Positions 25,498-40,295 of a stretch of 64,000 nucleotides of DNA are shown here, piece by piece. Made by a program: the position numbers and the translations under genes. Every line of letters starts with the position of its first letter. Positions within the stretch are counted from its first letter, which is position 1. The DNA comes from Desulfomicrobium sp. GTDB lineage: Bacteria; Desulfobacterota; Desulfovibrionia; Desulfovibrionales; Desulfomicrobiaceae. Under the pieces are notes generated by a model that was not told the DNA's origin, searched no databases, and saw only the letters and a list, made by a program, of their open reading frames with translations. Where the stretch lies: positions 66,680-130,679 of the forward strand of contig JBFWJY010000002.1 of NCBI GenBank assembly GCA_050252955.1. The letters are read 5' to 3'.

Positions 25498-25803
25498 CTA
25501 GTCCAGCGGCGGGCGCTGGATCCCTTCCACCCGCCTGGTCCCGCGCACGACTTCGACACCCGAAGCGGTCAGGGTCAACGCCGGCAGAGCGCCGATGTGG
25601 TTTAGAGTTACAAGCCCGGCGCCACGCAGGAACTCCGCGTCCTGTGTGACAACGTCCCTGGACACAGGAAGCAGATAGCTTTCCAGGGCAGCCCCCATCA
25701 GGCTTACGCTCATCCTGCGGTCCGGCTCCTCGTTTAAGAAGCAAAGCATGGCCAGCCGGCGCTTTTCGGCCACCTTGCGCTGAAATTCCTCAATGTGATT
25801 CAT
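25498..25803 (-). CDS. Hypothetical protein (winged-helix-like)
   Basis: 101 aa, ATGA-coupled to the upstream gene. No secure family. Confidence 0.5.
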   Translation of the reverse strand: MNHIEEFQRKVAEKRRLAMLCFLNEEPDRRMSVSLMGAALESYLLPVSRDVVTQDAEFLRGAGLVTLNHIGALPALTLTASGVEVVRGTRRVEGIQRPPLD

Positions 25804-26189
25804 CCCTTATTCCCCATGTGGACTTCGGTTAGCAGATCGACAGCCTTTTCCATTCGCTCCGTGGCCCTGGCTTGGCCGTTGACCTTTTGGGCCAGACCCT
25901 TGATGTCGCCCTCGATCTCCTTGAGGCTCAGGGCCAATATCTGCATGTCCTGGCTTGTCGGCAGAGACTTGAGCGCCTGCTCCAAGGCTTTCTTCGCGGC
26001 CTCGCTGTCCCTCTGCTGGGCAGCCAGGGCCTCAATGCGCCCGTCAAAACCTGCCCGGCAGATCTCGCACTCCTCTTGGCGGACAAAGATCCGCTTCATG
26101 GACCACCAGGCCCACAAAACCAGCGCCCAGCCCAATGTTTGCAGCAACCCGGGCAGATACCTGAGCAGCTCCAGGGTTATTTCGTTCAT
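25800..26189 (-). CDS. DUF2730-like membrane/coiled-coil protein
   Basis: N-terminal TM (LGWALVLWAWW) plus a coiled coil. Common in Mu-like prophages between lysis and packaging genes. Confidence 0.55.
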   Translation of the reverse strand: MNEITLELLRYLPGLLQTLGWALVLWAWWSMKRIFVRQEECEICRAGFDGRIEALAAQQRDSEAAKKALEQALKSLPTSQDMQILALSLKEIEGDIKGLAQKVNGQARATERMEKAVDLLTEVHMGNKG

Positions 26190-26401
26190 CTCCAGGTATC
26201 TCCTCGTTCATGTTCCTCTTGGCATTCCAGGCACCGGCAGCAGTTTGGGACGGCCAGGCGTCTCTTCTCCGGGATCTCTTCCTCGCAATCCACGCAGTGG
26301 GTCAGGCTCTCCCGTGCGGCTGTCTTCGGTCGCCGCATGCTCGCGAGCGCTCCTTCCCGGAATAAGCGCTCGGCCTTTTGGGCCGCGTCAATTTCGTCCA
26401 C
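26186..26401 (-). CDS. TraR/DksA-family zinc-finger protein
   Basis: Four-Cys finger CVDCEEEIPEKRRLAVPNCCRCLEC in a 71-aa protein. Confidence 0.75.
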   Translation of the reverse strand: MDEIDAAQKAERLFREGALASMRRPKTAARESLTHCVDCEEEIPEKRRLAVPNCCRCLECQEEHERGDTWR

Positions 26402-26684
26402 TGTCGCCTCCAGTCTGGGCCCCGTAACACTTCACGCAGTCTTCCAGGGCCTTGGCGTACGACCGAAAAATGTCGTCTCGCTCCAAGAAAATTTCCACGT
26501 TCAGCGCGTGGTCGAACGGCAGGGCCGGATCCAAGGCCGGGATGTCCGGGCGGGCTGGAGCCGGGCACTCTGCCACGGGCAAGGCCACGACAACGGGAGC
26601 GGCAGGGGCGACGGGGGCCTTTGCCCCGCACCCGGCACTACCAAGGGCGATTAAGGCGAGTAGCAGCACTGTGACGTGTCGCAT
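26388..26684 (-). CDS. Outer-membrane spanin (Rz1-like lipoprotein)
   Basis: Internal start MRHVTVLLLALIALGSAGC (lipobox). Its 5' end overlaps the i-spanin 3' end in another frame. Confidence 0.7.
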   Translation of the reverse strand: MRHVTVLLLALIALGSAGCGAKAPVAPAAPVVVALPVAECPAPARPDIPALDPALPFDHALNVEIFLERDDIFRSYAKALEDCVKCYGAQTGGDSGRN

Positions 26685-27075
26685 CGTCCACCACCTCCTT
26701 GGCCTCTGCTTCCGTGCGCTCGCGCGTCCGCATGGCCGAAATGATTGCTTTCCTGGCCTCGGCGTCCGCGCGGGCCTGGGCTTCCCTGACAAGAGCCGCG
26801 CGGACATTGCCCTGCAGGGCCTCGGTGGCGTTTCGCGCCTGATCCAGGGCAACCCGAAGCCCGGCCGCCTCTCTTCTGGACTCGGCCAGCTCCGACCTGG
26901 TCGCGGCGTGCTGGGCTTCCTGGGCTGCGAGCTCTCCGCCAAGGGCCGAAACCTTCACATCGTGGCGCAAGTCCTGAATGTAGAGCGCTGCCACGAGCCC
27001 AAGCAGAAGCACGGCCACCCAAAGCCACTTAGAGCCAAGGACCCGTCCGGCCAGAGGGAGTAGGCTACCGAGCAT
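26638..27075 (-). CDS. Inner-membrane spanin (Rz-like)
   Basis: N-terminal TM (WLWVAVLLLGLVAALY) then a long coiled coil. ATG at 27075 is preceded by GGGGG; the track start at 27087 is TTG. Confidence 0.7.
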   Translation of the reverse strand: MLGSLLPLAGRVLGSKWLWVAVLLLGLVAALYIQDLRHDVKVSALGGELAAQEAQHAATRSELAESRREAAGLRVALDQARNATEALQGNVRAALVREAQARADAEARKAIISAMRTRERTEAEAKEVVDDATRHSAATRLNRPW

Positions 27076-27700
27076 CACAGCCCCCAAGCCCCCATCCGGC
27101 GGCCTGATAAAGGGGCCCCCAGCGGTTCAGGATCCGCTCTGGGTAGCCCCTGTTTTCCTTGAAATTTGCGGCGGAACGCCCGGAGTTGAACCGGGTAACA
27201 TCGTTCCAGCTTAGTGGATCCATCCCCTTGGATGCGGCCAGGCGCTGGTCTCGCTGCACCCACCCCAGGCCCCCATTGTACGCCGAAAGCGTAAACGCCC
27301 ACCGGTCGCAGTCCGAGGCCGCCCGGACCCGGTTCCAGATCCATTTGTCGTAAACAATCATCGCCCTGATGGACCACGAAGCAGAGAACGGCATGGGCTG
27401 CCCGGTCTGCGGTGCTACCTCGGGCAACCAGCGCGATGTCGCAGGCATGAACTGAGCCAAACCCTGCGCGCCCACTGGCGACACGGCCCGCTCGTTCCAC
27501 CTGGACTCTTGGTGGATCTGACCCGCGAACGTGGCTACGGGAGCATTAAGCCCCCACTGAGCTCTCGCCTCGCGAATCAGAAGGGCACGGTGCTGTTTGG
27601 CCTGGGCGGGAATGAGAGGGGAGGCCACAGCCTCCCAGACGCCCCACCAGAAGAGCGCGCAAAAGGCCAGGACGGCCAGCAGGCCCCAATTCGGCCTCAT
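27065..27700 (-). CDS. Endolysin, SLT-type lytic transglycosylase with N-terminal signal-anchor
   Basis: GQIHQESRWNERAVSPVGAQGLAQFMPAT (catalytic Glu motif). The hydrophobic N-terminus LLAVLAFCALFWWGVW suggests SAR-type export. Start at 27700 (ATGA coupling). Confidence 0.8.
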   Translation of the reverse strand: MRPNWGLLAVLAFCALFWWGVWEAVASPLIPAQAKQHRALLIREARAQWGLNAPVATFAGQIHQESRWNERAVSPVGAQGLAQFMPATSRWLPEVAPQTGQPMPFSASWSIRAMIVYDKWIWNRVRAASDCDRWAFTLSAYNGGLGWVQRDQRLAASKGMDPLSWNDVTRFNSGRSAANFKENRGYPERILNRWGPLYQAAGWGLGGCDAR

Positions 27701-28170
27701 AGCCCAAGCCCCACGGCCAGCATGCCGACAGTGAAGGCCAGGGCCAGACAGACCACGCACACGCTGAAAATCCGCTCGTAGCCGTCGGCAATCTCAAAGT
27801 CCGCGCCGCCCTTGACGTCTGCGTCCGGATCCTCGCGCCAATCCGTCGCCAGGTAGCGCGACGGGTTCGCAATGGGCACCAGGGCCAGCCAGACGCACCC
27901 ACCGACGACGCCGCCAAGCGGGGCCAGTAGGAGCTTGTAGAGCACCACCGGGAGCTGCTGCGGGCTATACAACCACACCACGCCACACAGGGCCACGATA
28001 GCGATCAGGCAGTACACGATCTGGAACCTGGTTGTGCTCAAAAGGCCATCCAGACTCTTGGTCACAAGCGGCAGCAGGGAGCCCTGGAAGAGACTTGCAG
28101 CCTTTTCCTTGATCCCGCCGATGCCCTTGGCGACAAGGCCCCGGAAAAAATTCAATGCATTCTTGAACAT
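27697..28170 (-). CDS. Putative holin / lysis membrane protein
   Basis: 157 aa with about 3 hydrophobic helices, directly upstream of the endolysin. Confidence 0.6.
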   Translation of the reverse strand: MFKNALNFFRGLVAKGIGGIKEKAASLFQGSLLPLVTKSLDGLLSTTRFQIVYCLIAIVALCGVVWLYSPQQLPVVLYKLLLAPLGGVVGGCVWLALVPIANPSRYLATDWREDPDADVKGGADFEIADGYERIFSVCVVCLALAFTVGMLAVGLGL

Positions 28171-28210
28171 AAAAAAGCCCTCCTAGAGCTGGTGATACTC
28201 TTGGAGGGCT
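28171..28210 (-). terminator. Hairpin plus T-run immediately upstream of the holin start
   Basis: Coding strand AGCCCTCC-(19 nt)-GGAGGGCT-TTTTT-ATG. The 3' arm doubles as the holin Shine-Dalgarno sequence. Confidence 0.4.
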
Positions 28211-28264
28211 TGGCGGGATAAGACGAAATGTTTCGGGGTGAAAAGTCCTTCTTCTGCCTATCGC

Positions 28265-28657
28265 TTACTTCGTTTCAGGGTGATCGACAAGAGTGTTTGC
28301 CGATTTGATCGGCAGGGGAAGCTGCTTGGCCCCCGCCGTCGCGCTGGACAAGATATACACATAGCGGTCCGTGACGCCGCATTGCTCTGCTATCTCAGCC
28401 TTTGTCAGCCCTTCATCGAGCAGCTGAAGCACCTTGGCTTTGCAGTGTTCGCGGCGGCCGTTCGGGACCACGATATCTTCCCCCGGATAGGCCGCGCAAA
28501 GCGCCTCCATCCCATCCACGCCGACCAGCTTGGCCAGCCAGTGGTCCGGGCTCGCCTGGCGCGGGACATAGAACTTGATGCCGCCCTTGCCCCTGGTCAG
28601 CACCAGGGCCATGTCATCACCGAGAATGCTCACGAGCTCAGGATAGCTGACCCACAT
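28265..28657 (-). CDS. Mor/C-family transcriptional activator
   Basis: C-terminal HTH (GLTKAEIAEQCGVTDRYVYIL) and the position between GemA and the lysis genes, as for Mu Mor/C. Confidence 0.65.
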   Translation of the reverse strand: MWVSYPELVSILGDDMALVLTRGKGGIKFYVPRQASPDHWLAKLVGVDGMEALCAAYPGEDIVVPNGRREHCKAKVLQLLDEGLTKAEIAEQCGVTDRYVYILSSATAGAKQLPLPIKSANTLVDHPETK

Positions 28658-29199
28658 TACTGAACCCTCCGCCCGTGTTTATGAGCGTCCCGGATCAGGG
28701 CCACGATCACGCCGCGCAGCTCCATGGCAGAGGCATCCTCGAAGCTCTTCACCTTGCCGCCGGTCTGGCGTTTCAAGATGGCCATGGCGTACCCCCATGG
28801 GACGTCCGTACCCTCGACGCGGCCCTTCTCTGATAGCAGCGCCTCGATCTTGCGGATCTGCGCATCAACGTCATAGGGGTCTGCGCTTTTGCGGCGCGGC
28901 GTCGGCTGGAAGCCCAAGCGCTGAAGGTGCAGAAGCAGATCGTTCAGGCCGGTCATATCCAGATCCTTGCTCGAATCCACGCCGAAGCGCTCCGACAGGA
29001 TACCCCTGTAGATTTCATCATCCAGCCCCAGGCGCTGCTTGGCGATATGCACCTTGGCCAGCATCGCCTTCTGGTTCTCGCGCTGCAGCCCGCCGCGTTT
29101 ACGGGGCGCGACCTTGGCCGGGTCCTGTTTACGGGCCGGGGCCTTGGCCAGCGTCGCTGGATCCACGGGCTTTCCGGTGAAAATCGATAGAACGGTCAT
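28657..29199 (-). CDS. GemA-like protein (Mu gp16, DUF1018)
   Basis: MLAKVHIAKQRLGLDDEIYRGILSERFGVDSSKDL...LLLHLQRLGF. ATG at 29199 is preceded by GAGGAG at 5 nt. Confidence 0.7.
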   Translation of the reverse strand: MTVLSIFTGKPVDPATLAKAPARKQDPAKVAPRKRGGLQRENQKAMLAKVHIAKQRLGLDDEIYRGILSERFGVDSSKDLDMTGLNDLLLHLQRLGFQPTPRRKSADPYDVDAQIRKIEALLSEKGRVEGTDVPWGYAMAILKRQTGGKVKSFEDASAMELRGVIVALIRDAHKHGRRVQ

Positions 29200-29267
29200 C
29201 TTGACTCCTCGGCTGCTCATCAGGCCCGGGCCGCCACGCCCGGACGACCTCCCGCAGGAGGTTTCGC

Positions 29268-29738
29268 TTATCGTCTGCTTGCCGTCCCGTATTCCTCAAG
29301 AGGCATGTCCAAACCCTTGCGGACGGCGGTCCAGCATTCCGGGCAGCGCCTCCAGTAGCCAGCCGGCATCGGCTGCCCGCAATCTGCGCAGCGCTTCCCG
29401 CTGGACTGCTTGGAACGCCATGAGGCCCGTTCAGGGCGGGGTGCTCGCTTCAGCTTAGCGGCGGACCTGGCGTTTGATTTCTCCGCCATAACGTCGCCCC
29501 TGACTTTCTCAACCCACGCCATGGTGGGCTCAAATTCGACTCCCCACACCTTCAACATGGTTGTGCGGATGACCACGGCCTTGCACCTGCCCTCAGCGGG
29601 AAACCTGATCATATACATGGCAGAGAGTGCGGTTTTGTTGGACTGAACATAAGGCATCCGCATCCCCCGAGGGCCGCGCAGCCTGCCGTCAATGCTCAGT
29701 TCATATTCCGGATTCTCCGGGAGCACCTTCCAGCTCAT
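29268..29738 (-). CDS. NUMOD4-motif protein with C-terminal zinc ribbon
   Basis: WKVLPENPEYELSIDGRLRG (NUMOD4-like) and CADCG...CPEC. Confidence 0.6.
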   Translation of the reverse strand: MSWKVLPENPEYELSIDGRLRGPRGMRMPYVQSNKTALSAMYMIRFPAEGRCKAVVIRTTMLKVWGVEFEPTMAWVEKVRGDVMAEKSNARSAAKLKRAPRPERASWRSKQSSGKRCADCGQPMPAGYWRRCPECWTAVRKGLDMPLEEYGTASRR

Positions 29739-30160
29739 GGCCTTTCCTCCCTCGCAACGATGTCCTCAGCGGCGACGTACCGCGTTCCACCGTAGACCGT
29801 CACAGGCACCATCCAGCGGCCGTCATGGGCCAGGATGAACGGCCCAACCGTAAACCCGCCCTCGACCCGTGTGCGCCCTTCATCCTCGATTCGCACGCTG
29901 ATCCTTGACCCCCTTCGAAGGCTTGGGCGCGGTGCCGGAGCACCCACTGTTCCCAGCGCAGCCGAAGCGACCAGGTGGGCGAGGCCGTCACGATCCAGAA
30001 AGAGCACTTCGCCCTCGGGGCCATCATGCCAGCGACGGTCGACTCGGACACGGAAAAGGCCCTCGGGGCCTCCGTGGATCTCCGCCGGGGACAGTTCAAA
30101 GCGGGTTCGCTTCGTGCCCATCCTGACACTAAAGCCGCCTGTAAAAATGCGATTATCCAT
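29735..30160 (-). CDS. Hypothetical early protein
   Basis: Start MDNRIF at 30160, preceded by GAGGAG. The upstream part of the track ORF (to 30484) overlaps other genes. Confidence 0.55.
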   Translation of the reverse strand: MDNRIFTGGFSVRMGTKRTRFELSPAEIHGGPEGLFRVRVDRRWHDGPEGEVLFLDRDGLAHLVASAALGTVGAPAPRPSLRRGSRISVRIEDEGRTRVEGGFTVGPFILAHDGRWMVPVTVYGGTRYVAAEDIVAREERP

Positions 30161-30171
30161 GCAAAGCTCCT

Positions 30172-30276
30172 CTAAACCCGGTCGCCCATGAACAAGGCGA
30201 GAAACACGAAAAGAACCGAAGCGGCATTGTGCTCCAAGGCCAAGATGAAGGCGATAACTACACAGACCGCCCTCAT
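30172..30276 (-). CDS. 34-aa hydrophobic micro-ORF
   Basis: MRAVCVVIAFILALEHNAASVLFVFLALFMGDRV. Its ATG overlaps the upstream TGA (ATGA) and its TAG sits inside the next gene's SD region. It exactly fills an otherwise empty gap. Below the ORF-track size cutoff. Confidence 0.45.
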   Translation of the reverse strand: MRAVCVVIAFILALEHNAASVLFVFLALFMGDRV

Positions 30277-30710
30277 GCCTGTCGACACTCCACAGCATGG
30301 GCGTCACGATAGTGCGAAAGAATCTCCCTGATGCGGTCAAAGTCTTCCGCCACGACAGTGCAGCCAAGGCTTTCAAGCATGGTCTCAGCAGGCCCCATGA
30401 TGATTGACGCCCGGCGCTCAGCATCATCCCATGACAGGAGTGGGGCCAGCGCCACTTCCAATGCTTCCAAATTCTTGCGTGCATACAGCAGCTTCTTGTT
30501 CTGCGTCGTCAGGATCTGCCGGTGGCGTTCGCTTTCGGCCAGCTCGGACCCAAGCCCACGAAGCTGCTCTTCCTGGATCGACAAGGTGCCAAGGGCCGAC
30601 CGAAGATGTGCGTCTTGTTCTTCCAAGCGGTCCGCAATGGCCTGCAGCACCCGGTGGCTGAGTGTCTGGTTGTTGGCGCGGATCAGGTTGACCATCTGTT
30701 CAGTTGTCAT
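30273..30710 (-). CDS. Hypothetical coiled-coil early protein
   Basis: Start MTTEQM at 30710 (ATGA coupling). Confidence 0.55.
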   Translation of the reverse strand: MTTEQMVNLIRANNQTLSHRVLQAIADRLEEQDAHLRSALGTLSIQEEQLRGLGSELAESERHRQILTTQNKKLLYARKNLEALEVALAPLLSWDDAERRASIIMGPAETMLESLGCTVVAEDFDRIREILSHYRDAHAVECRQA

Positions 30711-31261
30711 TCTTCCCCCCTCTGTATCCCAAGCCGCTCCCGCCACCCCTTAATCCCTTCGGACAGGGGCACGATGGGCTTGTCGTCATGCTCCGGGTCC
30801 CGGCGGCGCTGTTGCGGTTCCTGGGGCCTGAATTTCGCTTCATTTTCCTTCTTCACATTGCCCTGGTGCCAAGCCTTTTCAGCGACCTCGTAAACAACCG
30901 CCCTGAGATAATTGTGACCGTCGAGCGGCCGCTCCAGCTTGCCCTGGGCGTCCCGGTCCAGCATCGTCTGAATGCCCTGAACCCAGAACTCCGGACGGCT
31001 CGGCACCACGCGCTGGCCCTTCCAACTCATGTCCTTTTCGGCCACCAGGTCGCTCAGCTCCGCCACGATCCGGCCCACGCGCTCCCAGGTCAAAACCCTG
31101 GCTGACGCTGGCTTGCGGAACATGCCGAGGTACGCCCAGCAGAGGCGAGGCAGGTCGCCGGGCAGCTTGCCGACAGCCACCACGGCCCGCTTGGCATCGT
31201 CGTCCACCAGGAAGGATTCCAGGGGGCCATAACCCCCGCAGACTGGGCAGGTGGCTTTCAT
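30707..31261 (-). CDS. Hypothetical early protein with N-terminal CPVCGG zinc-ribbon-like motif
   Basis: Start MKATCPVCGG at 31261 (ATGA coupling with the upstream gene). Confidence 0.55.
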   Translation of the reverse strand: MKATCPVCGGYGPLESFLVDDDAKRAVVAVGKLPGDLPRLCWAYLGMFRKPASARVLTWERVGRIVAELSDLVAEKDMSWKGQRVVPSRPEFWVQGIQTMLDRDAQGKLERPLDGHNYLRAVVYEVAEKAWHQGNVKKENEAKFRPQEPQQRRRDPEHDDKPIVPLSEGIKGWRERLGIQRGEE

Positions 31262-31665
31262 GCTTCCACCAACTCGATGGATTTGAAGGTCTTTTCGTAG
31301 TGAGTGCGGACGGCGCGAACTGATGGGAAGTACGAATAAAAACACACGAATTTTTTATCCATATCCCCAAGATACTTCTTTGCTTCACGCTTTCCGAAGC
31401 GCTTTGCGAACTTCGCGGCTCCATCCCGCTCTTTTTTTGGCCAAAGATAACGTTCGTGACGCCTCATGTAAGCCTGTTCTGGGCAGGGTTTCGTGACATC
31501 AAGCCACGCACCTTTCGCCCAGCCATCAACAAACACTAGGATTACCATCTTCATTTTGTCAGTACGGACTGCCAGCTCCACGTCCCTGCCATCCACACGC
31601 AGGGACATCTTGGCACCCGGAAAGCACAGCCTATCTTCAACCTTCTTCCAATCTTCGCGATTCAT
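31258..31665 (-). CDS. Hypothetical early protein
   Basis: 135 aa, ATGA-coupled on both sides, somewhat AT-richer than its neighbours. Confidence 0.55.
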   Translation of the reverse strand: MNREDWKKVEDRLCFPGAKMSLRVDGRDVELAVRTDKMKMVILVFVDGWAKGAWLDVTKPCPEQAYMRRHERYLWPKKERDGAAKFAKRFGKREAKKYLGDMDKKFVCFYSYFPSVRAVRTHYEKTFKSIELVEA

Positions 31666-31910
31666 GCCGCCGCCTGCCGACCGGCTTCCTTCAGACGCTG
31701 TCCGGCCTCGCGCACCAGCCCCAAAAGTTCGTCACCGAACCCTTCGAGCTCCAAAACAGCGTCCACCGCGCGGTCTTGCTCGTAACGATCCTCGAAGTTG
31801 CAGCGGTCTTGGAGGGTGCGAACAACGCGCTTCACGCTGCCAAGATGCTCCTTTGACTTCTGTTCGACTTCTGAGAGTAGCCAGCTCAGGACTTCTTCAG
31901 CTTCGCACAT
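31662..31910 (-). CDS. Hypothetical small acidic early protein
   Basis: Start uncertain. ATG at 31910 (MCEAEEVL) chosen; alternatives at 31940 and 31946. Confidence 0.4.
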   Translation of the reverse strand: MCEAEEVLSWLLSEVEQKSKEHLGSVKRVVRTLQDRCNFEDRYEQDRAVDAVLELEGFGDELLGLVREAGQRLKEAGRQAAA

Positions 31911-32125
31911 AGACTCATCTTCTCCTTGATTCGTTTCCATTCCCATGCGCAGTATCTCTTCCCGTCCGCAGCGGGCGGGAACACTGTTTTGCCGCAATAG
32001 CTGTCATCCCGCCCATTTCGAAGCTTTCGCTTGTTCCATGCGCAGCAAAATTCCTTACAGAAGCTGCGGGGCACTTCGTCGATCGTTGGGGTGTTTTCCC
32101 TGGTGATTACTTCTGTTCCGCCCAC
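31886..32125 (-). CDS. Hypothetical Cys-rich small early protein
   Basis: GTG start preceded by GAGGAGG at 6 nt. 79 aa with 6 Cys. Confidence 0.55.
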   Translation of the reverse strand: MGGTEVITRENTPTIDEVPRSFCKEFCCAWNKRKLRNGRDDSYCGKTVFPPAADGKRYCAWEWKRIKEKMSLCAKLKKS

Positions 32126-32346
32126 TTAAAACCTCCTCGCTGATTCGATGGTGGCGACGAACCCCAACGGTTCGCCGCCACTCTTGATTCAGCCACCCGT
32201 CTCGTGGGTGCTACGGTGCGGTCACGGCCAGGAGGGACCGCCCGCGCTGCAGGTGTTGCCGAGGTGTATGTGTCCCGACAGGGGCACCGCCTGCTGGGCC
32301 GATATCGTGACGGCGAGAGACCTCGCCGCCACTCGGGGCCAACAGG

Positions 32347-32946
32347 CTAGACCGATGCCATATCCAGCGGAACGGCCGTGTAGCGATCCCCAGCGACGCG
32401 CTCGTACAACCTGAAGTAGGCCGTAGTTCCCGTCACCTGCAGGCTGTCGGAGATGGCCTCCATGGCCCTCAGCCATCGGTCGTCGTCGATGTTCAAGCGG
32501 CGCAAGCCCAAGATGCGGCCCGTATTGATCTTCCCCTCTCGGTCGACCTGGAAGGCGTCATTTATGAGCGCCTGCAGCTCCGTGCGGCTGCCCTTCGTCC
32601 ACTCCCTGATGCATTCGTCGATCAGGGCCTTGGCCGCCTGCAGCCGTTCGTCAAAACTCAGGTTCTCGGAGATCTGGCGGCGCAGCTTGAAGCGGCCGTC
32701 AAAGCTCATCAGCGTCACATTGCCTTTCTGCCCGCCCACCTGGGCGTCGTACTTTTGGGCGGCCAGGGACACGAAAGCCTCAATGTCGCCCATGATCTCC
32801 GCCTTGAGCTTGCGTATCATCTCTTGCGCGGCCTTGATCTTCTCCGCCTTCTCCACGACCAGCTCATCCCGAGCCAGGTCGATGGGCTGGATCTGCTCCA
32901 ATGGCACCAGGTGCCCGGCAGCGTTCTTCTTGTAACCTTCCATCAC
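32347..32946 (-). CDS. DUF3164-like protein (conserved Mu-like early protein)
   Basis: GNVTLMSFDGRFKL...FDERLQAAKALIDECI matches my memory of DUF3164. Confidence 0.65.
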   Translation of the reverse strand: MMEGYKKNAAGHLVPLEQIQPIDLARDELVVEKAEKIKAAQEMIRKLKAEIMGDIEAFVSLAAQKYDAQVGGQKGNVTLMSFDGRFKLRRQISENLSFDERLQAAKALIDECIREWTKGSRTELQALINDAFQVDREGKINTGRILGLRRLNIDDDRWLRAMEAISDSLQVTGTTAYFRLYERVAGDRYTAVPLDMASV

Positions 32947-33179
32947 ATTGCCTCCTTGAACTCGTTCTCTTCGATCACTTCGACCACTTCGGGCTCTTCT
33001 GCCGTTGCCTGTGCTGCGGGGCGTGGCACCACAAGGTTCCGCTCCATCTCTTCCGCCGTGTCCGCAGCGGCGGCCAAGTTGGAGCGCACAATGCGGATCA
33101 GCGCCGCCTGCTCGTTGCTTACTTGGTGCATCAGAGTGCCCAGGGCCGCCGCGTTGTTTCTGATTTCGTTACTGACCAT
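32943..33179 (-). CDS. Hypothetical small early protein
   Basis: ATG at 33179 is preceded by GGAGGG at 5 nt. The upstream part of the track ORF was rejected. Confidence 0.5.
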   Translation of the reverse strand: MVSNEIRNNAAALGTLMHQVSNEQAALIRIVRSNLAAAADTAEEMERNLVVPRPAAQATAEEPEVVEVIEENEFKEAM

Positions 33180-33546
33180 TGTTCCCTCCGTGGGGGCATT
33201 CGCCACGGCAGGCCCGGAACAGCCTGACCGCGAGCGGGTTGATTGATGAAAAAGGTTGATCTTGATTTTGACGACAGCGCTCAGCGCTGATGTGGCCAAG
33301 GACGGGGCATTCAACGCCGCCCAGGACGGCCTCCACGCGGGCTTGGATGAAGTCCAGACGGGCGTGGTGGGCATTGCGAATCGCCAGCGACACCAGGGCC
33401 GGGGAAACGCCCAGTGAGGCGGCTACGGTGCGCATACTGGATCTGTCGCAGGCCTCGGCAAGCGTCACCACCCACTCCGGCAGGTACATGGGCAGGACTT
33501 CGCCCCACCCCGAAAGGGCCAATTTCATTGCGCTTTGCCGTTTCAC
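33169..33546 (-). CDS. Putative HTH DNA-binding early protein with Cys-rich C-terminus
   Basis: MRTVAASLGVSPALVSLAIRN (HTH-like) followed by CPVLGHISAERC...CRGEC. Confidence 0.5.
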   Translation of the reverse strand: MKRQSAMKLALSGWGEVLPMYLPEWVVTLAEACDRSSMRTVAASLGVSPALVSLAIRNAHHARLDFIQARVEAVLGGVECPVLGHISAERCRQNQDQPFSSINPLAVRLFRACRGECPHGGNNGQ

Positions 33547-34148
33547 AGGTCGTCCCTGCCTTCCGGGTCAGCGGCGTAAACAACCTTGTCCGTGTTCGGG
33601 TCGAAGAGCTGCTTTACGCGCAGGATCTGCGGGGCCTTGCACCCGGTGAAGCGGGCGCGAATGAAGCGGAACCGCTCCCCGGACTGAACCAGGTAGCCGC
33701 CACGAGCCAGCCAACCGCAATAAGTCTTGGCCTCGGAGTGGGCGACGGCAGCGCCGGGGATGCTGGCCGCGTGCATGAGCTCCCTGGGGGAGAATTCGCC
33801 CAGGATCTGCATGGCCTTCCACATCCGGTTGCGTCCAGATTCGGGCAGCATGGTCCCGTCCTTGCGGACGCGCGGGGCGCGCACGCCAGTGTCGTTGATC
33901 AGTTCGAATCGCATCGGCTCGAACCGAACGGCCAGCCCCTTGCCCACGATCCCGGCCCGGACCAGGCCGACCAGGTAGTCCTTGGCCTTGCTGTCCGAAA
34001 TGGCGGCGTCGCGGTCCTTGCCGGTGTTTACGGCGCGGCACAGGTCGCGGATTGTAAACACTCGAAGATCCCGCATCGCCGCCCACAACCGTTCCCGGTC
34101 GGTCAGCACTCCCGCCGGGGAGCAATGCCTTGCGGGTGCCTGACTCAT
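33543..34148 (-). CDS. Hypothetical protein with internally duplicated winged-helix-like domain
   Basis: RERLWAAMRDLRVFTIRDLCRAV...AKDYLVGLVRAGIV is repeated as RNRMWKAMQILGEFSPRELMHAA...AKTYCGWLARGGYL. Confidence 0.6.
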   Translation of the reverse strand: MSQAPARHCSPAGVLTDRERLWAAMRDLRVFTIRDLCRAVNTGKDRDAAISDSKAKDYLVGLVRAGIVGKGLAVRFEPMRFELINDTGVRAPRVRKDGTMLPESGRNRMWKAMQILGEFSPRELMHAASIPGAAVAHSEAKTYCGWLARGGYLVQSGERFRFIRARFTGCKAPQILRVKQLFDPNTDKVVYAADPEGRDDL

Positions 34149-34885
34149 GCGCTCCTCCGGCGGCTCGGGGCCTCCCCTGTGTACAGTTCGCGGGAGCCCC
34201 AGGTGGTCAAGTCCATCACGTCCCGGCCTTCCACCTGAGCCTGCTCTTCGATCCGCGAGATGTTCACGCAGATCCGCCGCACCGATCCCCCGGCCACGTC
34301 GTGAATCTTGGCCAGCAGGTCGTCCGCAATCTGCACCTTGGTGGAGTGCAGTTCGGACAAGGTCTTGCAGTCTTCAAGGCTCGCTGGTTGAGCAGGCGCC
34401 CAGTCCAGCACGCGGCCGTGGAAGCGCTCCCAGCGCTTCAGCTTGCCCGGAAGGCCCTCTTCGCCGATGAGCATCACCGGGGCCTGGCTGGCTTCGTATA
34501 AGTCCCTGATGATCTCAATCGTGCCCCTTTCGAGCAGGTAGTCCACTTCGTCGACGATCAGGGGGCGCTTGCTCAGAGCCAGCTCCTCGGCAATCTGGTC
34601 GCTCATCTCGGCCACGGTTTTGGCCGGGAGAACGCCCAGGCCTTTCAAGATGGCCTGGTGGGCTGCCTTGCGGGTCCAAGAGGAGCGGGCCTGCACATAC
34701 ACGGCATCACAGTGGATGGTTGCCACCGTGGCGGCCGTGGACTTGCCGTATCCGGACGGTCCGTAGAACACGACGATCCCAGGCAGGTGCGCAGGGCGCG
34801 TGATGGCTCGTCTCAGAGTGGACAGGCACATGGCGACATTTCCAAGCGGTGCTACCCCGGGGCCGGGGTTGGGGACTAGGGACAT
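34145..34885 (-). CDS. MuB-like AAA+ transposition ATPase
   Basis: Walker A FYGPSGYGKST and Walker B LIVDEVDYL. Lies directly downstream of the transposase. Confidence 0.85.
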   Translation of the reverse strand: MSLVPNPGPGVAPLGNVAMCLSTLRRAITRPAHLPGIVVFYGPSGYGKSTAATVATIHCDAVYVQARSSWTRKAAHQAILKGLGVLPAKTVAEMSDQIAEELALSKRPLIVDEVDYLLERGTIEIIRDLYEASQAPVMLIGEEGLPGKLKRWERFHGRVLDWAPAQPASLEDCKTLSELHSTKVQIADDLLAKIHDVAGGSVRRICVNISRIEEQAQVEGRDVMDLTTWGSRELYTGEAPSRRRSA

Positions 34886-34948
34886 GACAGGTTCTCCTTG
34901 AAGGTTGTGGTTTAGGGCCTTGCGGCCCTGGTCGATAATTCTGAAATT

Positions 34949-37027
34949 TTAACCGTTTACCGCGCAAATCTGGTACATTTGACGAAACCCATCAGCCTCA
35001 TTGCTGGCCGCGTAAATGCGGGCCCACTTGGCCTCCGCTTCGGTCAGGTCCTCGCGCGCCTGAAGGACCAGCAGCAGCTTGTAGCGCTGCTGGGCAGTCG
35101 CCGGGGGCACAAAGCCCGGCACGATCTCACGTGCCTGCTCGGTGACGGCCACGGCGGGGATGTGGGCGTTTACGGCATCGGCGGCGGCTTCGAGTTCCGG
35201 GGTGGTGTAGACGGTGGAGCGCTGGTCAACGCCCTTGGCGCGAATGGCCTCTGCGCGCTTGCGGTGGTGCTCGCGGATCACGGGCATGGCCTGGCCAGCC
35301 TCGGTCAGCTTGGCCATGGCGCGCATCTCCTTGGACACGGCCTTTGGAGCCGCCTGGCTGACGCGCCGCATGGCCTTGGCCTCTTCGCGCATCTGGTCAG
35401 CGCTCAGGGCGTCTGTCCGCGATGCCTTGCACATAAAGTTGCCGTCATCGTCGAACACATACGCCCAGGACAGGTCCGCAGGATCCATTCGGACCTGCAC
35501 GCGGTGGCCGACCAGCCCGCCCAGCTCCGGCGCGACATAGAGGCCGGAGGCGCAGCGCAGGCCCTTCTTGCCCACATCTCGGAACCCGCCGCCGCTGGCC
35601 AGGGGCACCAGCAGGACGTCCAGGGCGCGTTCATTTTCAATCCGCCTGACCGGCATGATCCATTCCTGGGCAACTTCCCAGGGCGTGCGGCCGCCCAGCC
35701 CTGCATGGGGGCGGTGGGCATAGGTGTTTTCGCACCAGTCGTCGCAAAAGGCCTGCAACTCCTGGGGGGAGAAGGCCATGGACAGCTCCTGGGGGTTCTT
35801 GCGATCCATGAGGCGCTTGGCGAAGGCCTCGCGCTCTCGGATCTCCTGGCGTGTGGCCACATTGTGGCCCACATAGCAGGGGCAGATCGTCAAAAGATGG
35901 TGCGAGAAGGTCCGGAACGCGCGTTCGATCCCCGGTTTCAAATCGGGCCGGAACGGGGGCAGGATGGTCTGCAGGACGCCCAGCGAATGGAAGACCTGCT
36001 GCAGGTAGCTGGCAACAAAATCCTTGCCGTTGTCGGTCACGACTTCCTCGGGAGCGCCCCAATCAATGAGGCAGCGACGTGTCAAAGCTGCCACATCGCG
36101 GGCCGTGGACGTGGGCACCACTTCCAGCTTCAGGCGACGGTCGAAAATATTGATTACGCCGATGATTGCGTAGCGCTTTCCGTCGGAAAGCATGATGTCC
36201 GAGGGGGTGCCGTCATACTCCCAAAGCTGGTTTTGCCTGACAATCAGCTCGTAGGCGTCGCCACAGGCGGCCATGAAGCGGCTCCGCCACTTGTCCGGCG
36301 CCTGGACATACATCCATTCGCCCGGGTGGGCCTTCTTCCACTCGGAAACCCACGCCTGTAGGCGGCGCAAAGACGGGACTTTCTGAAATTTTGCTTCAAG
36401 CCATTCGCGGATGAGCTGAGTCGAGGCATTGGGGTGCTCGGCCAGCATGCCCAGGATGGATTCGCGCATCAGGGGGGTGCTTTCGATGATGCCCGTTCCC
36501 TTGCGGTGTTTACCAAACTTCCCGCCAAGCGCGGCAGGTCCTTCTTTCTCCTCGGCTTCGAGCCAGTTCTTCACAGAGTTCGGGCTGAAACTCGGGAGCT
36601 CCTCACGCAGCCAGGACTCCGCCTCAATCTCGCCCGCAGCCCACCGCACTGCGAAGGCCTCGCGACACGGAGTGTCCGCAAGGTTGGCCCTGGCCGCGAA
36701 CGATTTGTAAAGGGCGATGATCGCAGTTCTTGTCGCGAACCTGATCTTTTTCTTGCCCTTCAGCTTCATAATATCGGCCAGGCCCGCTTCTTTGGCCGGG
36801 GTGATGGCAGGCGGGGTGTAGGGGCACGACTTGGTGGCGATGCGCACGCTCACGTCTTTGGGTAGGCCTGCGACTGGAAACAGCTTGGCCCTCCCTTCCC
36901 ATATTGCCGGCCATCCTCCTTTTTTTGCCATCTTATCTACAGCCTGCCTGGAGCAACCCAGGATTTGCCCGATGTCTGCGGCAGAGAGCGCCTCTTTTTC
37001 GCTGATGGGCTGATCTACTTTGGCCAT
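34949..37027 (-). CDS. MuA-like DDE transposase
   Basis: 692 aa. N-terminal HTH (ADIGQILGCSRQAVDKMAK), then an rve-type core with DGTPSD, VVTDNGKDF and YAHRPHAGLGGRTPWE. Confidence 0.9.
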   Translation of the reverse strand: MAKVDQPISEKEALSAADIGQILGCSRQAVDKMAKKGGWPAIWEGRAKLFPVAGLPKDVSVRIATKSCPYTPPAITPAKEAGLADIMKLKGKKKIRFATRTAIIALYKSFAARANLADTPCREAFAVRWAAGEIEAESWLREELPSFSPNSVKNWLEAEEKEGPAALGGKFGKHRKGTGIIESTPLMRESILGMLAEHPNASTQLIREWLEAKFQKVPSLRRLQAWVSEWKKAHPGEWMYVQAPDKWRSRFMAACGDAYELIVRQNQLWEYDGTPSDIMLSDGKRYAIIGVINIFDRRLKLEVVPTSTARDVAALTRRCLIDWGAPEEVVTDNGKDFVASYLQQVFHSLGVLQTILPPFRPDLKPGIERAFRTFSHHLLTICPCYVGHNVATRQEIREREAFAKRLMDRKNPQELSMAFSPQELQAFCDDWCENTYAHRPHAGLGGRTPWEVAQEWIMPVRRIENERALDVLLVPLASGGGFRDVGKKGLRCASGLYVAPELGGLVGHRVQVRMDPADLSWAYVFDDDGNFMCKASRTDALSADQMREEAKAMRRVSQAAPKAVSKEMRAMAKLTEAGQAMPVIREHHRKRAEAIRAKGVDQRSTVYTTPELEAAADAVNAHIPAVAVTEQAREIVPGFVPPATAQQRYKLLLVLQAREDLTEAEAKWARIYAASNEADGFRQMYQICAVNG

Positions 37028-37248
37028 CAGGCAGCCCTCCGCGCTTCAGTCCGACCCACAAAATACTCCCTGGGACAGCCAAGGTTGATGAAATATTCGT
37101 ACACCCTGGTGCTGGTGCTGTGCCCGGTGATAAAGCGCTGGATCATTGTTCTGGACAGGCCCATTTCCCTGGCTATGTCGGCTTGCCTGACGCCATTCAG
37201 CGTCATCCACGCCTTGATCCGGCGTGCATTTTTTTCGCTCATCATCAT
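37027..37248 (-). CDS. Small HTH regulator (Ner-position)
   Basis: GVRQADIAREMGLSRTMIQRFITG. 73 aa, immediately upstream of the transposase. Confidence 0.7.
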   Translation of the reverse strand: MMMSEKNARRIKAWMTLNGVRQADIAREMGLSRTMIQRFITGHSTSTRVYEYFINLGCPREYFVGRTEARRAA

Positions 37249-37694
37249 GCTCCCAGCCTTTCTAATAGGGCGCGCTTCTTGGAGGAGCGTTTACGCTCTT
37301 CAATTAGGATCTGGCCGTATTCGGCCAGGACCATGGTCCCTTCGTCCGCCAACCCATGCCCCGTTCCATCGAGGATGGCCGAAATCATGCCGAAGTCCTG
37401 GGTGATCATGCAAAACGCAGTGGCCAGTTCCAGCGGGAACCTCCATTCGCGCTTTCCGCCCGAGCACCAGTTGTGAATATGATTCACTGAAACGGCCTCT
37501 CCGGTCAGCCTGGTCAGTTCCTGCGCCACCTCCTCCCTGGAGAGCTGGCAAGCCGCCAGTGCCTGTGTCAGCGCCTCGCGAATAGCCTCTTTTCGGCATA
37601 ACCGACCGGCACGAATGGAGTTTGTGCCGCCGGAATGCAGGGGGAGGAGGAGCTGCCTTGGAGCAGTGTCCGAGGTCGTGCGTTTTTTTGTCAT
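37245..37694 (-). CDS. First early-operon protein, putative DNA-binding regulator
   Basis: Divergent from the repressor. LSREEVAQELTRLTGEAVSVNHIHNW is HTH-like, with a faint resemblance to the CII (CP76) family. ATG at 37694; the track start at 37706 is TTG. Confidence 0.5.
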   Translation of the reverse strand: MTKKRTTSDTAPRQLLLPLHSGGTNSIRAGRLCRKEAIREALTQALAACQLSREEVAQELTRLTGEAVSVNHIHNWCSGGKREWRFPLELATAFCMITQDFGMISAILDGTGHGLADEGTMVLAEYGQILIEERKRSSKKRALLERLGA

Positions 37695-37820
37695 TGCTCG
37701 TAACAACGCTGCTTGTTAGAGGTTGTTAAATTAAGTTTTTTTGTAAACTTCATGGGAAGAGGAATAACCATCTGAAATGGTCATTGTCAATGGTCAATAG
37801 TGGTTGCTCGTGAAAAATAA
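37695..37820. promoter_or_regulatory. Divergent repressor/early promoter-operator region
   Basis: AT-rich 126-nt gap between divergent genes. Direct repeats AATGGTCA (37776, 37789) and TTGCTCGT(A/G)A (37694, 37804). GGTTGCTC recurs at 37802, 37895, 37907 and inverted at 37930. Confidence 0.55.
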
Positions 37821-38585
37821 TTGTCTACGGTGCAAAAATTGAAGAAAAATAAACAATCTGAAGTGGTTAACGCTAGCGCAACTCCGCACGAAGCGGTTGC
37901 TCAAGTGGTTGCTCAAGATGTTAAAAGTGGAGCAACCACGGTTGATGCTATTTTGGGCAGGATGAAGCTTGCCGTTGGTGTCAAAAGCGACACGGCATTC
38001 GCGAAAGCGATGGGCTTGAATCAATCTTCAGTGTCTGGGGCAAAAGAGCGGCAAAGCGTTCCGCCTGCCTGGTACGTGGCGGTCTCCGAAAATTTCGGGG
38101 CATCCATGGACTGGCTACGGACAGGTGAAGGGGAGATGAAGCGAGGCGGGGCGCAGTTCGCCAAGATTCGACCAGGTGAGAGGTGGGACGACCCGCGCCC
38201 TGGCAGCGAAGACGGCCCGCTCTGGAAGGCAGGCCTGTACCAAAGGCACAAAGAAGAGCCAGAGCCCCAGGCGTCCATATATAATGATAGCGAGGGAGAG
38301 GATTTCGATCTGGCCGAGGTGCTGGCCCAAACCTTGGACATCCTCAAATCAAAGACCGTTTACACGACGGCTATTGTAAGCAATATCAAGGCCTTTCATA
38401 AGGCCATCACCACCGAAAAGAAGATCGACGAAATGCAAGGGCAGCTGAACCAGGCCCTTTCGTCCTTCCAGGACCAGCTCGACAAGACGAACCAGCTCGT
38501 TCAAGGTCTACAGTCCGAGAACGCCCAGCTCCGGCACGACCTGGAAGAATCCCGCGCTGCATCAGCAGTTCGGGACACGGGTTAG
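37821..38585 (+). CDS. Phage repressor (CI-repressor HTH family, PF07022-like) with coiled-coil C-terminus
   Basis: VDAILGRMKLAVGVKSDTAFAKAMGLNQSSVSGAKERQSVPPAWYVAVSENFGASMDWLRTGEG. Start uncertain: TTG 37821, or in-frame GTG at 37830, 37863 or 37905. Confidence 0.75.
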   Translation: MSTVQKLKKNKQSEVVNASATPHEAVAQVVAQDVKSGATTVDAILGRMKLAVGVKSDTAFAKAMGLNQSSVSGAKERQSVPPAWYVAVSENFGASMDWLRTGEGEMKRGGAQFAKIRPGERWDDPRPGSEDGPLWKAGLYQRHKEEPEPQASIYNDSEGEDFDLAEVLAQTLDILKSKTVYTTAIVSNIKAFHKAITTEKKIDEMQGQLNQALSSFQDQLDKTNQLVQGLQSENAQLRHDLEESRAASAVRDTG

Positions 38586-38760
38586 GCTACACCACCATAG
38601 CCTCCTGATGCTACGGGCCGTCGAGAAGATCGGAAACGTGATCGACGCGCGGAAGCTTTGGGAGGAAGTAGGGCGGGCGAAAGACGGGCACACACCAGCA
38701 AAGGCCGCCTGATGTCATACATTTTAAATAGATACACAAACGAAGGGAGTATTTTTCGCT

Positions 38761-39882
38761 ATGGGAAATGTCATCATCCAGTCAGTTGACGATCTATTCG
38801 GATTCATGGCGTTAACTTTGACTGGAGAAGCGAGATGGGATGAGGTAGATCTTGATCGACTTCATGTGACTATCCCTGTGCGTGTTTACGGCCCTACTCG
38901 GGACGGCAGGATTGACCCTCCAGGCGCGCAGCTTATCCAGGATCTGCAACGACATGCCGTAAAGGCTTTTCGAGAAATTGGAGATACTACAACTGGCGGG
39001 AGAAGCACGCAACTTCGCGTCTCTGTTCAAGAAAATTGCGATTTTTGGGACATCGATGCTACTGCACTTATCAAAGAGGCAATACTCAAAATGTCTGGAG
39101 ATCAAATTACAGCTGCCATATTTTTCTTTTTAATACTTGGTGCTGGATATTTTGTTTTTAAAAAGCACCAAGATACAAAATTAGAAATTATGAAATTGCA
39201 AATTGCTTCTGATGAAAAGAAAGCGCTATACGAGCATGAAGAAAAAATGATTACAGGACTTTCTGAATTACGCGAAAAATCAGAAGAAAAAAACGGCATA
39301 GCGTTGCAAGCATTAGAGGTTTCCAAGGAGTCGCTTGCCGTTGCGCACGACTTTGCATATAAGATGATCCAAAATGCAAATTTAAGCGGAGATGATGCAC
39401 AGCGGCCTATTAGAAGGTTTTCGAAAACACTTCGAAAGAATGAGACATTATCAATCGGTGGAGAAGAAAGACTTACAAAGAGAGAGGCATTAGAAGCAAT
39501 TGGAAATATTAAAAAAGATGATTCACTTTATTATACACATGCAGATGAGACCTACGGTATTGCCGGATTAATTTTTAGCGGTGAATCTCAAGGGCTGCGA
39601 GTAATTTTTGAAGGGCAAGAATCATTTGCGATTTTGGAAAGGCTTGATGCAGACATAAAAAGTAAAATTTTAGAAATAGCCGACGAAAGTATGGAAATGA
39701 AAAGCGTTCGAAACATGCCTTTGCAGATGGATATATATTTTAAATCAAGCGGAATTAAATACGGTGTAGTTATTGGGGTTGGCCCAAAGCGTCCAAAATT
39801 AAATCACTATACTTTATCCCAGATCCCTGGAGGAGTCCCAGCAGCCGACTGGATCATCCCTGGAACAAGAGCCATTTCATAA
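38761..39882 (+). CDS. Orphan AT-rich membrane protein (prophage cargo)
   Basis: 373 aa. One central TM (ITAAIFFFLILGAGYFVF) followed by a K/E-rich coiled-coil region. Purine-rich GAAGGGAG upstream and its own terminator. No family recognised. Confidence 0.75.
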   Translation: MGNVIIQSVDDLFGFMALTLTGEARWDEVDLDRLHVTIPVRVYGPTRDGRIDPPGAQLIQDLQRHAVKAFREIGDTTTGGRSTQLRVSVQENCDFWDIDATALIKEAILKMSGDQITAAIFFFLILGAGYFVFKKHQDTKLEIMKLQIASDEKKALYEHEEKMITGLSELREKSEEKNGIALQALEVSKESLAVAHDFAYKMIQNANLSGDDAQRPIRRFSKTLRKNETLSIGGEERLTKREALEAIGNIKKDDSLYYTHADETYGIAGLIFSGESQGLRVIFEGQESFAILERLDADIKSKILEIADESMEMKSVRNMPLQMDIYFKSSGIKYGVVIGVGPKRPKLNHYTLSQIPGGVPAADWIIPGTRAIS

Positions 39883-39889
39883 TAGACGC

Positions 39890-39935
39890 GGGGATCTTAT
39901 GTCAGCGGTTCTGACATAAGATCCCCTATTTCAAA
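39890..39935 (+). terminator. Rho-independent terminator of the cargo gene
   Basis: GGGGATCTTATGTCAG-cggtt-CTGACATAAGATCCCC (16-bp perfect stem), then TATTTCAAAATT. Confidence 0.8.
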
Positions 39936-39990
39936 ATTCAAAACTAAGTGGCGCAAACCCAAAAACGCCAAAATTTAAGTGGCGCGACCA
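39931..39990. repeat. Prophage terminal repeat, repressor-proximal end (attL-equivalent)
   Basis: The reverse complement reads TGGTCGCGCCACTTAAATTTTGG-(14 nt)-GCGCCACTTAGTTTTGAATTTTGA, which mirrors the 4485-4540 end. Confidence 0.8.
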
Positions 39991-40084
39991 CCCGCGCCGC
40001 CCGCAACCAAAACTTCCCACTCAGACGCCCGCCAACCCGCTCCACTCCTCAACATCCATCCCACTATATTCCTCTATTACTCGG

Positions 40085-40295
40085 TGTATCTCGATTCAAA
40101 ACTATCTGTCGCTGCACAACCATGGCTACGCACCGAACTAGCATCCTGGCTTGGTACGACCTTCCCATATCCTCTGGGCCCATGGAAGGAACCAACAACA
40201 AGATCAAGATGCTCAAAAGACCGGCGTACGGCTACCGGGATCAGGAGTTCTTCAAACTCAGAATTCTGGGGATCATGAAACCAATTACGCTTTAA
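40085..40295 (+). pseudogene. ISL3-family transposase C-terminal remnant
   Basis: ILAWYDLPISSGPMEGTNNKIKMLKRPAYGYRDQEFFKLRI matches the conserved ISL3 transposase C-terminus; the N-terminal ~350 aa are absent. A possible IR remnant (AAACGACGAAGAACC) lies near 40365-40380. Confidence 0.7.

Follow-up and report, generated by a model that had tools for sequence, protein, structure and literature searches.

A repressor-proximal cargo slot in a Mu-like Desulfomicrobium prophage carries a gene for a predicted single-pass membrane protein, a candidate phage-exclusion factor

Prophage hotspots are productive sources of new bacterial immune systems. In phage lambda, the accessory genes rexA and rexB lie downstream of cI and are co-oriented with it, are dispensable for growth and include a membrane component. 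The lactococcal protein Sie2009 and the Streptococcus thermophilus protein Ltp are small envelope-anchored superinfection-exclusion proteins that are encoded beside the repressor in the lysogeny module. To our knowledge, no prophage hotspot of this kind has been described for transposable (Mu-like) phages that infect sulfate reducers and gut anaerobes. Here, we describe a 64,000-nucleotide stretch of Desulfomicrobium sp. DNA (the window; assembly GCA_050252955.1, contig JBFWJY010000002.1, positions 66,680 to 130,679) that contains a Mu-like prophage and, between the repressor gene of this prophage and the adjacent phage end, a gene for a 373-residue protein, which we call the cargo gene. In the Mu-like Pseudomonas phage Fc02, the exclusion genes olg1 and gene 10 are associated with the repressor transcript (PMC9936078), and accessory low-GC regions have been reported in Pseudomonas Mu-like phages (PMC4378225).

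We compared the cargo gene with each of these systems. Lambda Rex consists of two genes, and RexB has four transmembrane (TM) helices, whereas the window has one gene whose product is predicted to have one TM helix and an OB-like domain. The window protein showed no sequence similarity to lambda Rex, and a single gene with a single hydrophobic helix does not supply the sensor and the polytopic membrane channel of a Rex-type two-component system. As with Sie2009 and Ltp, the cargo gene lies in the lysogeny module and is co-oriented with the repressor, both in the window and in nine related lineages, and a block of DNA entry would resemble the mode of action that we propose for the cargo protein. 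However, Sie2009 and Ltp belong to Gram-positive systems, have about 160 residues or are lipoproteins, and belong to no sequence family in common with the window protein, which has 373 residues in three folded parts. Fc02 is likewise a transposable phage with exclusion functions in its regulatory region, but olg1 and gene 10, which were compared with the cargo gene by description, lie upstream of the repressor or overlap on the opposite strand, and Olg1 is a protein of 7.9 kDa (PMC9936078). The defence-gene hotspots of P2-like phages and P4-like satellites (PMC9122126) resemble the present slot in that exchangeable cargo, anti-phage systems among it, is framed by conserved prophage sequence. 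Phage type and position differ; the present slot lies at the repressor-proximal transposon end and holds single-gene cargos of 280-373 aa. A small extra open reading frame (ORF) is present besides the main cargo in two slots (L004 and L025; related loci carry labels of this form throughout). Prophage cargo hotspots and repressor-linked exclusion genes are already known kinds of arrangement; the slot in these Mu-like phages, together with this protein architecture, has no described counterpart in the resources searched.

Relatives of the prophage were fetched by the transposase and by the junction motif and were then aligned to the window. The alignments revealed that the interval between the repressor and the phage end is a variable cargo hotspot, as an earlier sequence-only reading of this DNA had proposed to check. 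The backbone sequence at the left junction ends ...CACACCAGCAAAGGCCGCCTGATGTCA(T/G)ACA (also written ...GCCTGATGTCA(T/G)ACA) and was also seen in L004, L034, L035 and L036; on the right, the backbone resumes at ATGTCAG-N5-CTGACAT, followed by TTTCAAAATTCAAAAC. Five allelic states of the slot were found between identical left and right junctions. The slot was empty in L023 and L036, where only 41-43 nt with a GC hairpin separated the junctions. It contained the cargo gene in the window, in L014 (99% identical) and in L009 (87%), and in L004 it contained a 59% homologue of the cargo gene with a 60-aa TM/zinc-ribbon small ORF. The other occupants were a 338-aa ClpP-like SDH protease (PF01972, E 3e-16) with a small ORF in L025, a 279-aa protein with a full-length match to the PADLOC family PDC-S42 (E 2.9e-34) in L035, and a 302-aa protein in L034 with a weak PDC-S42 match (E 1.3e-4) in its C-terminal part only. 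Every slot cargo was oriented as the repressor. Because the nearest relatives leave the slot empty or refill it, the gene is not one that is kept in all relatives in a lytic role.

The composition of the cargo gene also set it apart from its phage. Its GC content was 0.406 (GC3, at third codon positions, 0.33) against 0.617 for the phage, and the value was 0.48 in the first 345 nt and 0.36-0.38 in the remainder, which bears out the AT-richness, especially of the 3' two thirds, described from the letters alone. The GC contrast and the presence or absence of the gene among near-identical phages argue that it is accessory and was recently acquired in the window lineage, as had been suggested. In L014, the cargo was 99% identical even though the N-terminal half of the repressor had no nucleotide match to the window; the cargo thus travels independently of immunity specificity. 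We also observed that the heptamer ATGTCAG brackets the slot in every relative, at 38712-38718 in the left junction and within the right-junction hairpin at 39899-39917; it may serve as a signal for recombination or may simply belong to the conserved backbone.

The cargo ORF was confirmed at its first-described position and in the repressor direction, opposite to the main phage genes; most long ORFs of the prophage lie on the minus strand. The gene lies downstream of the repressor gene (Table 1). Its start is supported by the close homologues, which all begin MGN(V/I)II, and the ribosome-binding region of its own that had been read there corresponds to a Shine-Dalgarno-like sequence. The leader from the junction to the cargo start was 30-39 nt in three of the four cargo types (39 nt in the window) and about 95 nt in L034, and a terminator scan revealed no terminator-like site between the repressor and the cargo gene. 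Because these leaders leave little room for a promoter and no terminator-like site follows the repressor, we infer that read-through from the repressor promoter would be the simplest expression model for the cargo. A sigma-70 consensus promoter scan of 37400-40300 found no promoter anywhere, the repressor gene included, and is therefore uninformative for this host. An Rfam search over the slot gave no match. The hairpin behind the cargo gene had been called a perfect-stem terminator; the 16-bp perfect stem is confirmed, but its U-tract is weak (UAUUUC) and it was not flagged in the consensus terminator scan. Comparison with L023, L025 and L036 revealed that its core, ATGTCAG-N5-CTGACAT, is the backbone sequence that forms the right slot junction.

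The interval upstream of the slot is less simple than first described. The sequence-only reading had placed a single ORF between the repressor and the terminal repeats, but a conserved small ORF of 34 codons is also present there. Its length and frame are kept in the window, L004, L023 and L025, with a DNA identity of only 73% for L004; as no Shine-Dalgarno sequence is evident, conservation of an RNA or DNA element is an alternative to translation. The repressor is homologous to the genes found upstream of family members in other Mu-like phages. When L014/L024, a near-identical phage from another metagenome, was compared with the window, we found no nucleotide match over 37751-38262, which covers the N-terminal half of the repressor and the upstream region, while the flanks were 88-98% identical; this phage may be a heteroimmune variant with the same cargo. 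In L022 (its positions 1-551), which comes from an isolate genome, homology ceases 16 nt past the repressor stop and an apparent tandem-repeat region follows, with a recurring peptide pattern of about 22 aa in the ORF translations; the phage end and the slot appear to be lost there.

The cargo product had been regarded as an orphan of no recognisable family. Instead, we found that it matches PHROG 6191, a family of unknown function, with an E-value of 3.4e-10 (aa 3-216; profile positions 7-240 of 338), a match that spans only the N-domain, TM helix and linker. PHROG 6191 is the same family as the window protein and carries no functional annotation; 34 of 44 aligned homologues match it (best E 4e-26). 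A word-index search with the window protein identified four relatives with 59-87% identity, and an exhaustive profile search that covered 1.84 billion representatives identified 98 clusters (50% identity) at E <= 1e-3, 47 of them at E <= 1e-10, with nearly all members having 310-430 aa. The 44-sequence alignment revealed one common architecture in which D262 and R344 are invariant and G44, D52, A56, Q63, G129, L321, G339 and G341 are near-invariant. The window protein had no match in Pfam, NCBIfam or PADLOC, the 44 homologues had stray single Pfam hits and no consistent domain, PDB sequences searched with either the single protein or the profile yielded no meaningful hit, and tblastn of four family members against 50,697 GenBank phage records gave no match. 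One further candidate, P0089 (1048 aa), which seemed to repeat the C-terminal motif, was rejected as a Listeria-Bacteroides repeat protein with a spurious match. The dN/dS of the cargo gene was 0.08-0.10, with dS reaching about 0.9 or more; the N-domain had the lowest value (0.045) and the linker the highest. Owing to these low values, we regard the gene as functional and, by this measure, under strong purifying selection.

The AlphaFold model obtained from the 44-sequence alignment (pLDDT 83.5, pTM 0.66) agreed with the layout read earlier, namely a soluble N-domain, one TM helix, a K/E-rich coiled coil and a C-terminal domain; a model from five close sequences only (pLDDT 41.9) was unusable. 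The hydrophobic helix, QITAAIFFFLILGAGYFVF, has a mean Kyte-Doolittle value of 2.0 and is conserved family-wide, while the length of the linker at aa 134-215 varies across the family (alignment A2). In the C-terminal domain, DSSP assigned β-strands at 263-273, 276-283 and 286-291, a helix at 297-313 and further strands at 317-328 and 331-340 (aa ~260-345), a strand order that corresponds to an OB fold. Foldseek searches of the PDB and BFVD yielded no match at E <= 1e-3; what they returned above that threshold were weak OB-like hits and phage proteins of no known character. The best PDB matches were OB domains, from pertussis toxin S2/S3, the AspRS/LysRS anticodon-binding domain, staphylococcal superantigen-like protein (SSL), IF1 and LEF-3, and because these matches are weak (E >= 1.4e-2, target TM-score <= 0.38) the OB assignment of the modelled domain is tentative. 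Across the 44 sequences, K and R residues flanking the helix totalled 84 N-terminally and 141 C-terminally, an excess that under the positive-inside rule suggests a cytoplasmic C-terminal part, in an N-out/C-in topology.

We found the family gene directly 3' of a homologous helix-turn-helix (HTH) and coiled-coil repressor gene in all Mu-like contexts examined, which represent nine distinct lineages, and the repressors across these contexts are mutually homologous (phmmer E 1e-5 to 1e-57). The contexts are the window with L014, L009 and L004; a Maridesulfovibrio prophage (L026, L027 and L028; GCA_048612815.1) in which the cargo is the last gene; and five phages with a BcepMu-like layout in which the late genes come next (L016, L017/18, L029, L030 and one gut-metagenome phage that occurred in 149 index blocks). 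The identified hosts of these Mu-like phages are Desulfovibrio and Maridesulfovibrio. In L030, the cargo begins 10 nt past the repressor stop, and a strong terminator-like hairpin and then the endolysin gene follow; in L029, terminator-like hairpins lie ahead of the lysozyme gene. The tight coupling to the repressor and the hairpins before the lysis genes in these two loci place the family gene in the repressor unit, not in the late operon. Given this recurrent pairing in nine Mu-like lineages, the family is a regular partner of one repressor family and thus not a one-off acquisition at family level. In Maridesulfovibrio, three 100% identical prophage copies occupy three chromosomal sites, each with a ...TTCA end 222 nt past the family gene; such copies point to replicative transposition in the recent past.

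Some family members are found where there is no Mu-type repressor. In L001-3, the gene has a tyrosine integrase as its neighbour, and downstream are a NERD/SEC-C protein and a type I restriction-modification system; in L010, it lies in an integrase/Bro-N element; and in L019-21, it stands alone in the chromosome (GC 0.41 versus 0.69) between genes for metabolism and signalling, and the surrounding ~6 kb contain no mobile-element genes. Gene and backbone GC were compared in 11 contexts: the close subfamily has 0.41-0.45 in backgrounds of 0.53-0.69, and distant members are near backbone GC. The low GC kept in high-GC backgrounds points to recent horizontal spread of the window's subfamily. Additionally, small unrelated envelope proteins are often encoded just before family genes (L004 5700-5893, L010 6585-7097, L015 89-607 and L017 4421-4933); among them are a TM/zinc-ribbon small ORF, two lipoproteins (one of the PEGA/SHOCT kind) and a secreted tRNA_anti-like OB protein, and they may be further lysogeny-expressed cargo.

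The cargo gene is accordingly an accessory 'moron'. Its hypervariable slot lies just inside an attL-type end and would form the 3' end of the transcription unit of the repressor. Its product would be a single-pass membrane protein in which an N-terminal α/β domain, a TM helix, a helical-hairpin stalk and an OB-like barrel follow one another. In the lysogen, the gene would most likely be read through from the repressor promoter, and the protein would most likely act at the cell envelope by excluding or aborting infection by other phages. Possibly, phage DNA or entry proteins are intercepted on arrival at the inner membrane, either by the tethered OB domain or by the N-domain. We give even weight to the claim that the cargo is a lysogen-expressed, envelope-level phage-exclusion or abortive protein and to its being something else, and we consider it the best reading because of the positional precedents (Fc02, the Pseudomonas Mu-like phages, lambda rexAB and sie2009) and the PDC-S42 alleles in the slot. 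The broader claim, that this membrane-tethered OB-fold family constitutes a new anti-phage system of one gene, carried in the repressor operon, and that the interval between repressor and attL is a previously unrecognised defence hotspot, is plausible but somewhat short of an even chance.

Several observations weigh against an anti-phage function. The window protein had no hit among the PADLOC-DB 2.0 defence hidden Markov models at E up to 1, and four distant members searched against PADLOC at E up to 0.01 gave only a stray Cas1b match (E 0.009). PDC-S42 sits in exactly the same slot as the cargo (L035, with the weak match in L034) and has a similar length, but no strongly hydrophobic segment is visible by eye in its alignment. 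Homology between the two, suspected from a similar N-terminal pattern, was rejected by hhalign with single sequences and with a 10-sequence alignment (probability 1.7%, E 0.028 for A2 against A3). Moreover, PDC-S42 is itself an unvalidated candidate system, and no mention of it was found in the literature searched. The association with a defence island is limited to one context (L001), the OB assignment leans on the weak Foldseek matches described above, and no catalytic motif was found in the family protein. An N-out topology would need unusual export of a 112-aa N-domain without a signal peptide, and the steady linkage to one repressor family might instead signal a role in lysis-lysogeny. 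The exclusion or abortive-infection function proposed from the sequence thus holds in part: the gene is an accessory hotspot gene beside the repressor with PDC-S42 among the alternative alleles, but neither a PADLOC match nor homology to PDC-S42 backs it.

The same positional evidence would fit a lysogenic-conversion factor, which would use the only lysogen-expressed position of the prophage to aid the host envelope in ways unrelated to phages, such as stress tolerance, adhesion or competition. The stand-alone chromosomal copy among metabolic and signalling genes would suit such a function, as would the small lipoprotein, secreted or TM proteins often encoded just upstream (L004, L010, L015 and L017) and the glycan-binding OB folds (pertussis toxin S2/S3 and staphylococcal SSL) among the weak resemblances of the C-domain. 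However, two of the alternative slot cargos match a defence candidate, one full-length and one weakly, one of the non-phage contexts is a restriction-modification/NERD island, and nothing points to any specific envelope function. We consider a conversion factor unlikely, at something like one chance in five.

In nine Mu-like lineages the gene is linked to a single family of homologous repressors, in some cases at a distance of only 10 nt, and this linkage raises the question of a modulator of the lysis-lysogeny switch, in which a membrane-anchored partner of the coiled-coil repressor would couple envelope or physiological signals to repressor stability or induction. Lambda RexA and RexB reportedly assist the lysis-lysogeny switch. 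Coiled-coil segments are present in both the repressor and the cargo protein, and a preprint appears to offer a precedent (bioRxiv 10.1101/2021.04.19.439022). Such a partnership is hard to reconcile with the closest relatives, which keep the same C-terminal region of the repressor with an empty slot or an unrelated cargo, with L014, where a nearly identical cargo accompanies a repressor whose N-terminal half is unmatched, and with the family members that occur without any Mu-type repressor. A switch modulator is therefore improbable in our judgement.

A lytic-cycle function (in controlling lysis, in the entry or exit of DNA, or as the gene that opens the late operon) would account for the loci L016, L017/18, L029, L030 and L037-42, in which the gene is co-directed with the lysis and head genes and lies 0-3 genes before the endolysin gene. 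It is very improbable, since terminator-like hairpins precede the lysis genes in L030 and L029 and the gene is tightly coupled to the repressor gene, since in the window and in Maridesulfovibrio it has the opposite end and orientation to the late genes, and since it is dispensable in sister phages and also occurs outside phages. Finally, a decaying, non-functional AT-rich insertion with a fortuitous ORF, which the atypical composition and the lack of an annotated-family match might suggest, is for practical purposes refuted by the low dN/dS, the 98 homologous clusters with one architecture and the confident AlphaFold model.

For the phage-exclusion reading, the window offers a slot whose limits are precisely defined and for which empty, filled and alternative alleles occur in nature, and the family offers about 98 clusters, strong selection and a confident structural model with no known relatives. 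If phage exclusion is correct, the protein would represent a new defence architecture that joins a membrane anchor to an OB-like barrel, and the function would account for the gene travelling with the repressor. If the hotspot reading is correct, the interval from repressor to attL could be mined for further systems, including the SDH protease, the PDC-S42-like proteins and others. If phage exclusion is false, the slot would still illustrate the exchange of lysogeny-expressed cargo among Mu-like phages.

Table 1. Positions of the prophage, its repressor-proximal end and the parts of the cargo gene in the window.
Feature	Positions	Strand	Basis or remark
Mu-like (transposable) prophage	4485..40118		~35.6 kb; MuA-type transposase, end repeats, homology limits; left end placed by analogy
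CI-like repressor, HTH and C-terminal coiled coil, 254 aa	37821..38585	+	PF07022, E 6e-10
Putative conserved small ORF, 34 codons, MLRAVEKIGNVIDARKLWEEVGRAKDGHTPAKAA	38608..38712	+	TGA stop abuts the slot junction
Left slot junction, ATGTCA(T/G)ACA	38712..38721		backbone homology ends; L023 and L025 alignments stop at 38721-38724
Shine-Dalgarno-like GAAGGGAG	38742..38749	+	11 nt upstream of the cargo ATG; read from the sequence
Cargo gene, 373 aa, PHROG 6191 family member	38761..39882	+	ATG start
N-terminal α/β domain, aa 1-112 (predicted)	38761..39096	+	AlphaFold, pLDDT ~80-92; motif G44...RID52..GA56..I.DLQ63
Hydrophobic (TM) helix, aa 116-133 (aa 113-133 in the model)	39106..39159	+	hydrophobicity and family conservation; near-invariant G129
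K/E-rich helical hairpin/coiled-coil linker, aa 134-215 (predicted)	39160..39405	+	model helices 131-166 and 177-208
C-terminal OB-like β-barrel domain, aa 216-345 (tentative)	39406..39795	+	pLDDT 90-96; invariant D262, R344; motif GxGxxR
Hairpin, 16-bp perfect stem, 5-nt loop	39890..39926	+	dG -32.8 kcal/mol, z = -6.7 versus shuffles
Transposase-site-like repeat TTCAAAACTAAGTGGCGC	39937..39954		copies at 39968-39985 and 40095-40112; inverted at the other phage end
Second repeat CCAAAATTTAAGTGGCGC	39968..39985		repeat comparison
End-proximal repeat TTCAAAACTATCTGTCGC (40095-40112) and terminal TGCACA	40095..40118		phage end at 40118

The prophage carries the features of a Mu-like element, namely a DDE transposase with a Mu C-terminal domain, divergent repressor and Ner-like genes, repeats at both ends and CA termini. 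In a domain scan, the 692-aa MuA-type transposase (34949-37027) contained rve and Mu-transpos_C domains. The genes for a Ner-like HTH protein, a 153-aa protein and the transposase are divergent from the repressor and cargo genes. Inverted repeats were found at the prophage termini (4519-4542 and 39925-39948). The sequence-only reading had set the phage end at terminal repeats spanning 39931-39990; the repeats there are inner copies, as a third copy lies beyond them, and the right end (...GCTGCACA) is the point at which homology with four independent relatives ceases. Past it, the flanks differ among L023, L025, L036 and the window, as in independent insertions. With one end-proximal site, a gap and two inner sites, the right-end repeats of the prophage have the attL-type layout of Mu.

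The left end, at about 4485, was placed by analogy from ...GCGTTACA and would adjoin a tRNA-Pro gene (4312-4388). We found no 5-bp direct target-site duplication at several candidate ends, the flanks being TTGGT on the left and ACCAT on the right. The right flank (40119-40295) retains the C-terminal piece of a transposase of the ISL3 family (PF01610, E 1e-14, matched over positions 190-240 of the 240-position profile), and together with the tRNA-Pro gene on the left it does not resemble one interrupted target. The mismatched flanks and the absent duplication suggest a rearrangement or an imprecisely placed left end. Contig scans of the genomes that represent the host species gave nothing, whether the family alignment or the transposase was used as the query, and these genomes are apparently without this phage.

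Two further features of the window were observed outside the slot. A second low-GC stretch at 56000-63500 (0.35-0.55 versus about 0.65-0.70 in its neighbours) contains several long ORFs, mostly on the plus strand, and may be another horizontally acquired island. Within the prophage, a type II hammerhead ribozyme (Rfam RF02276) was found on the minus strand at 29207-29269, scoring 72 bits where the gathering score is 37 (E 4e-13), in the gap between the minus-strand ORFs 28657-29220 and 29268-29738.

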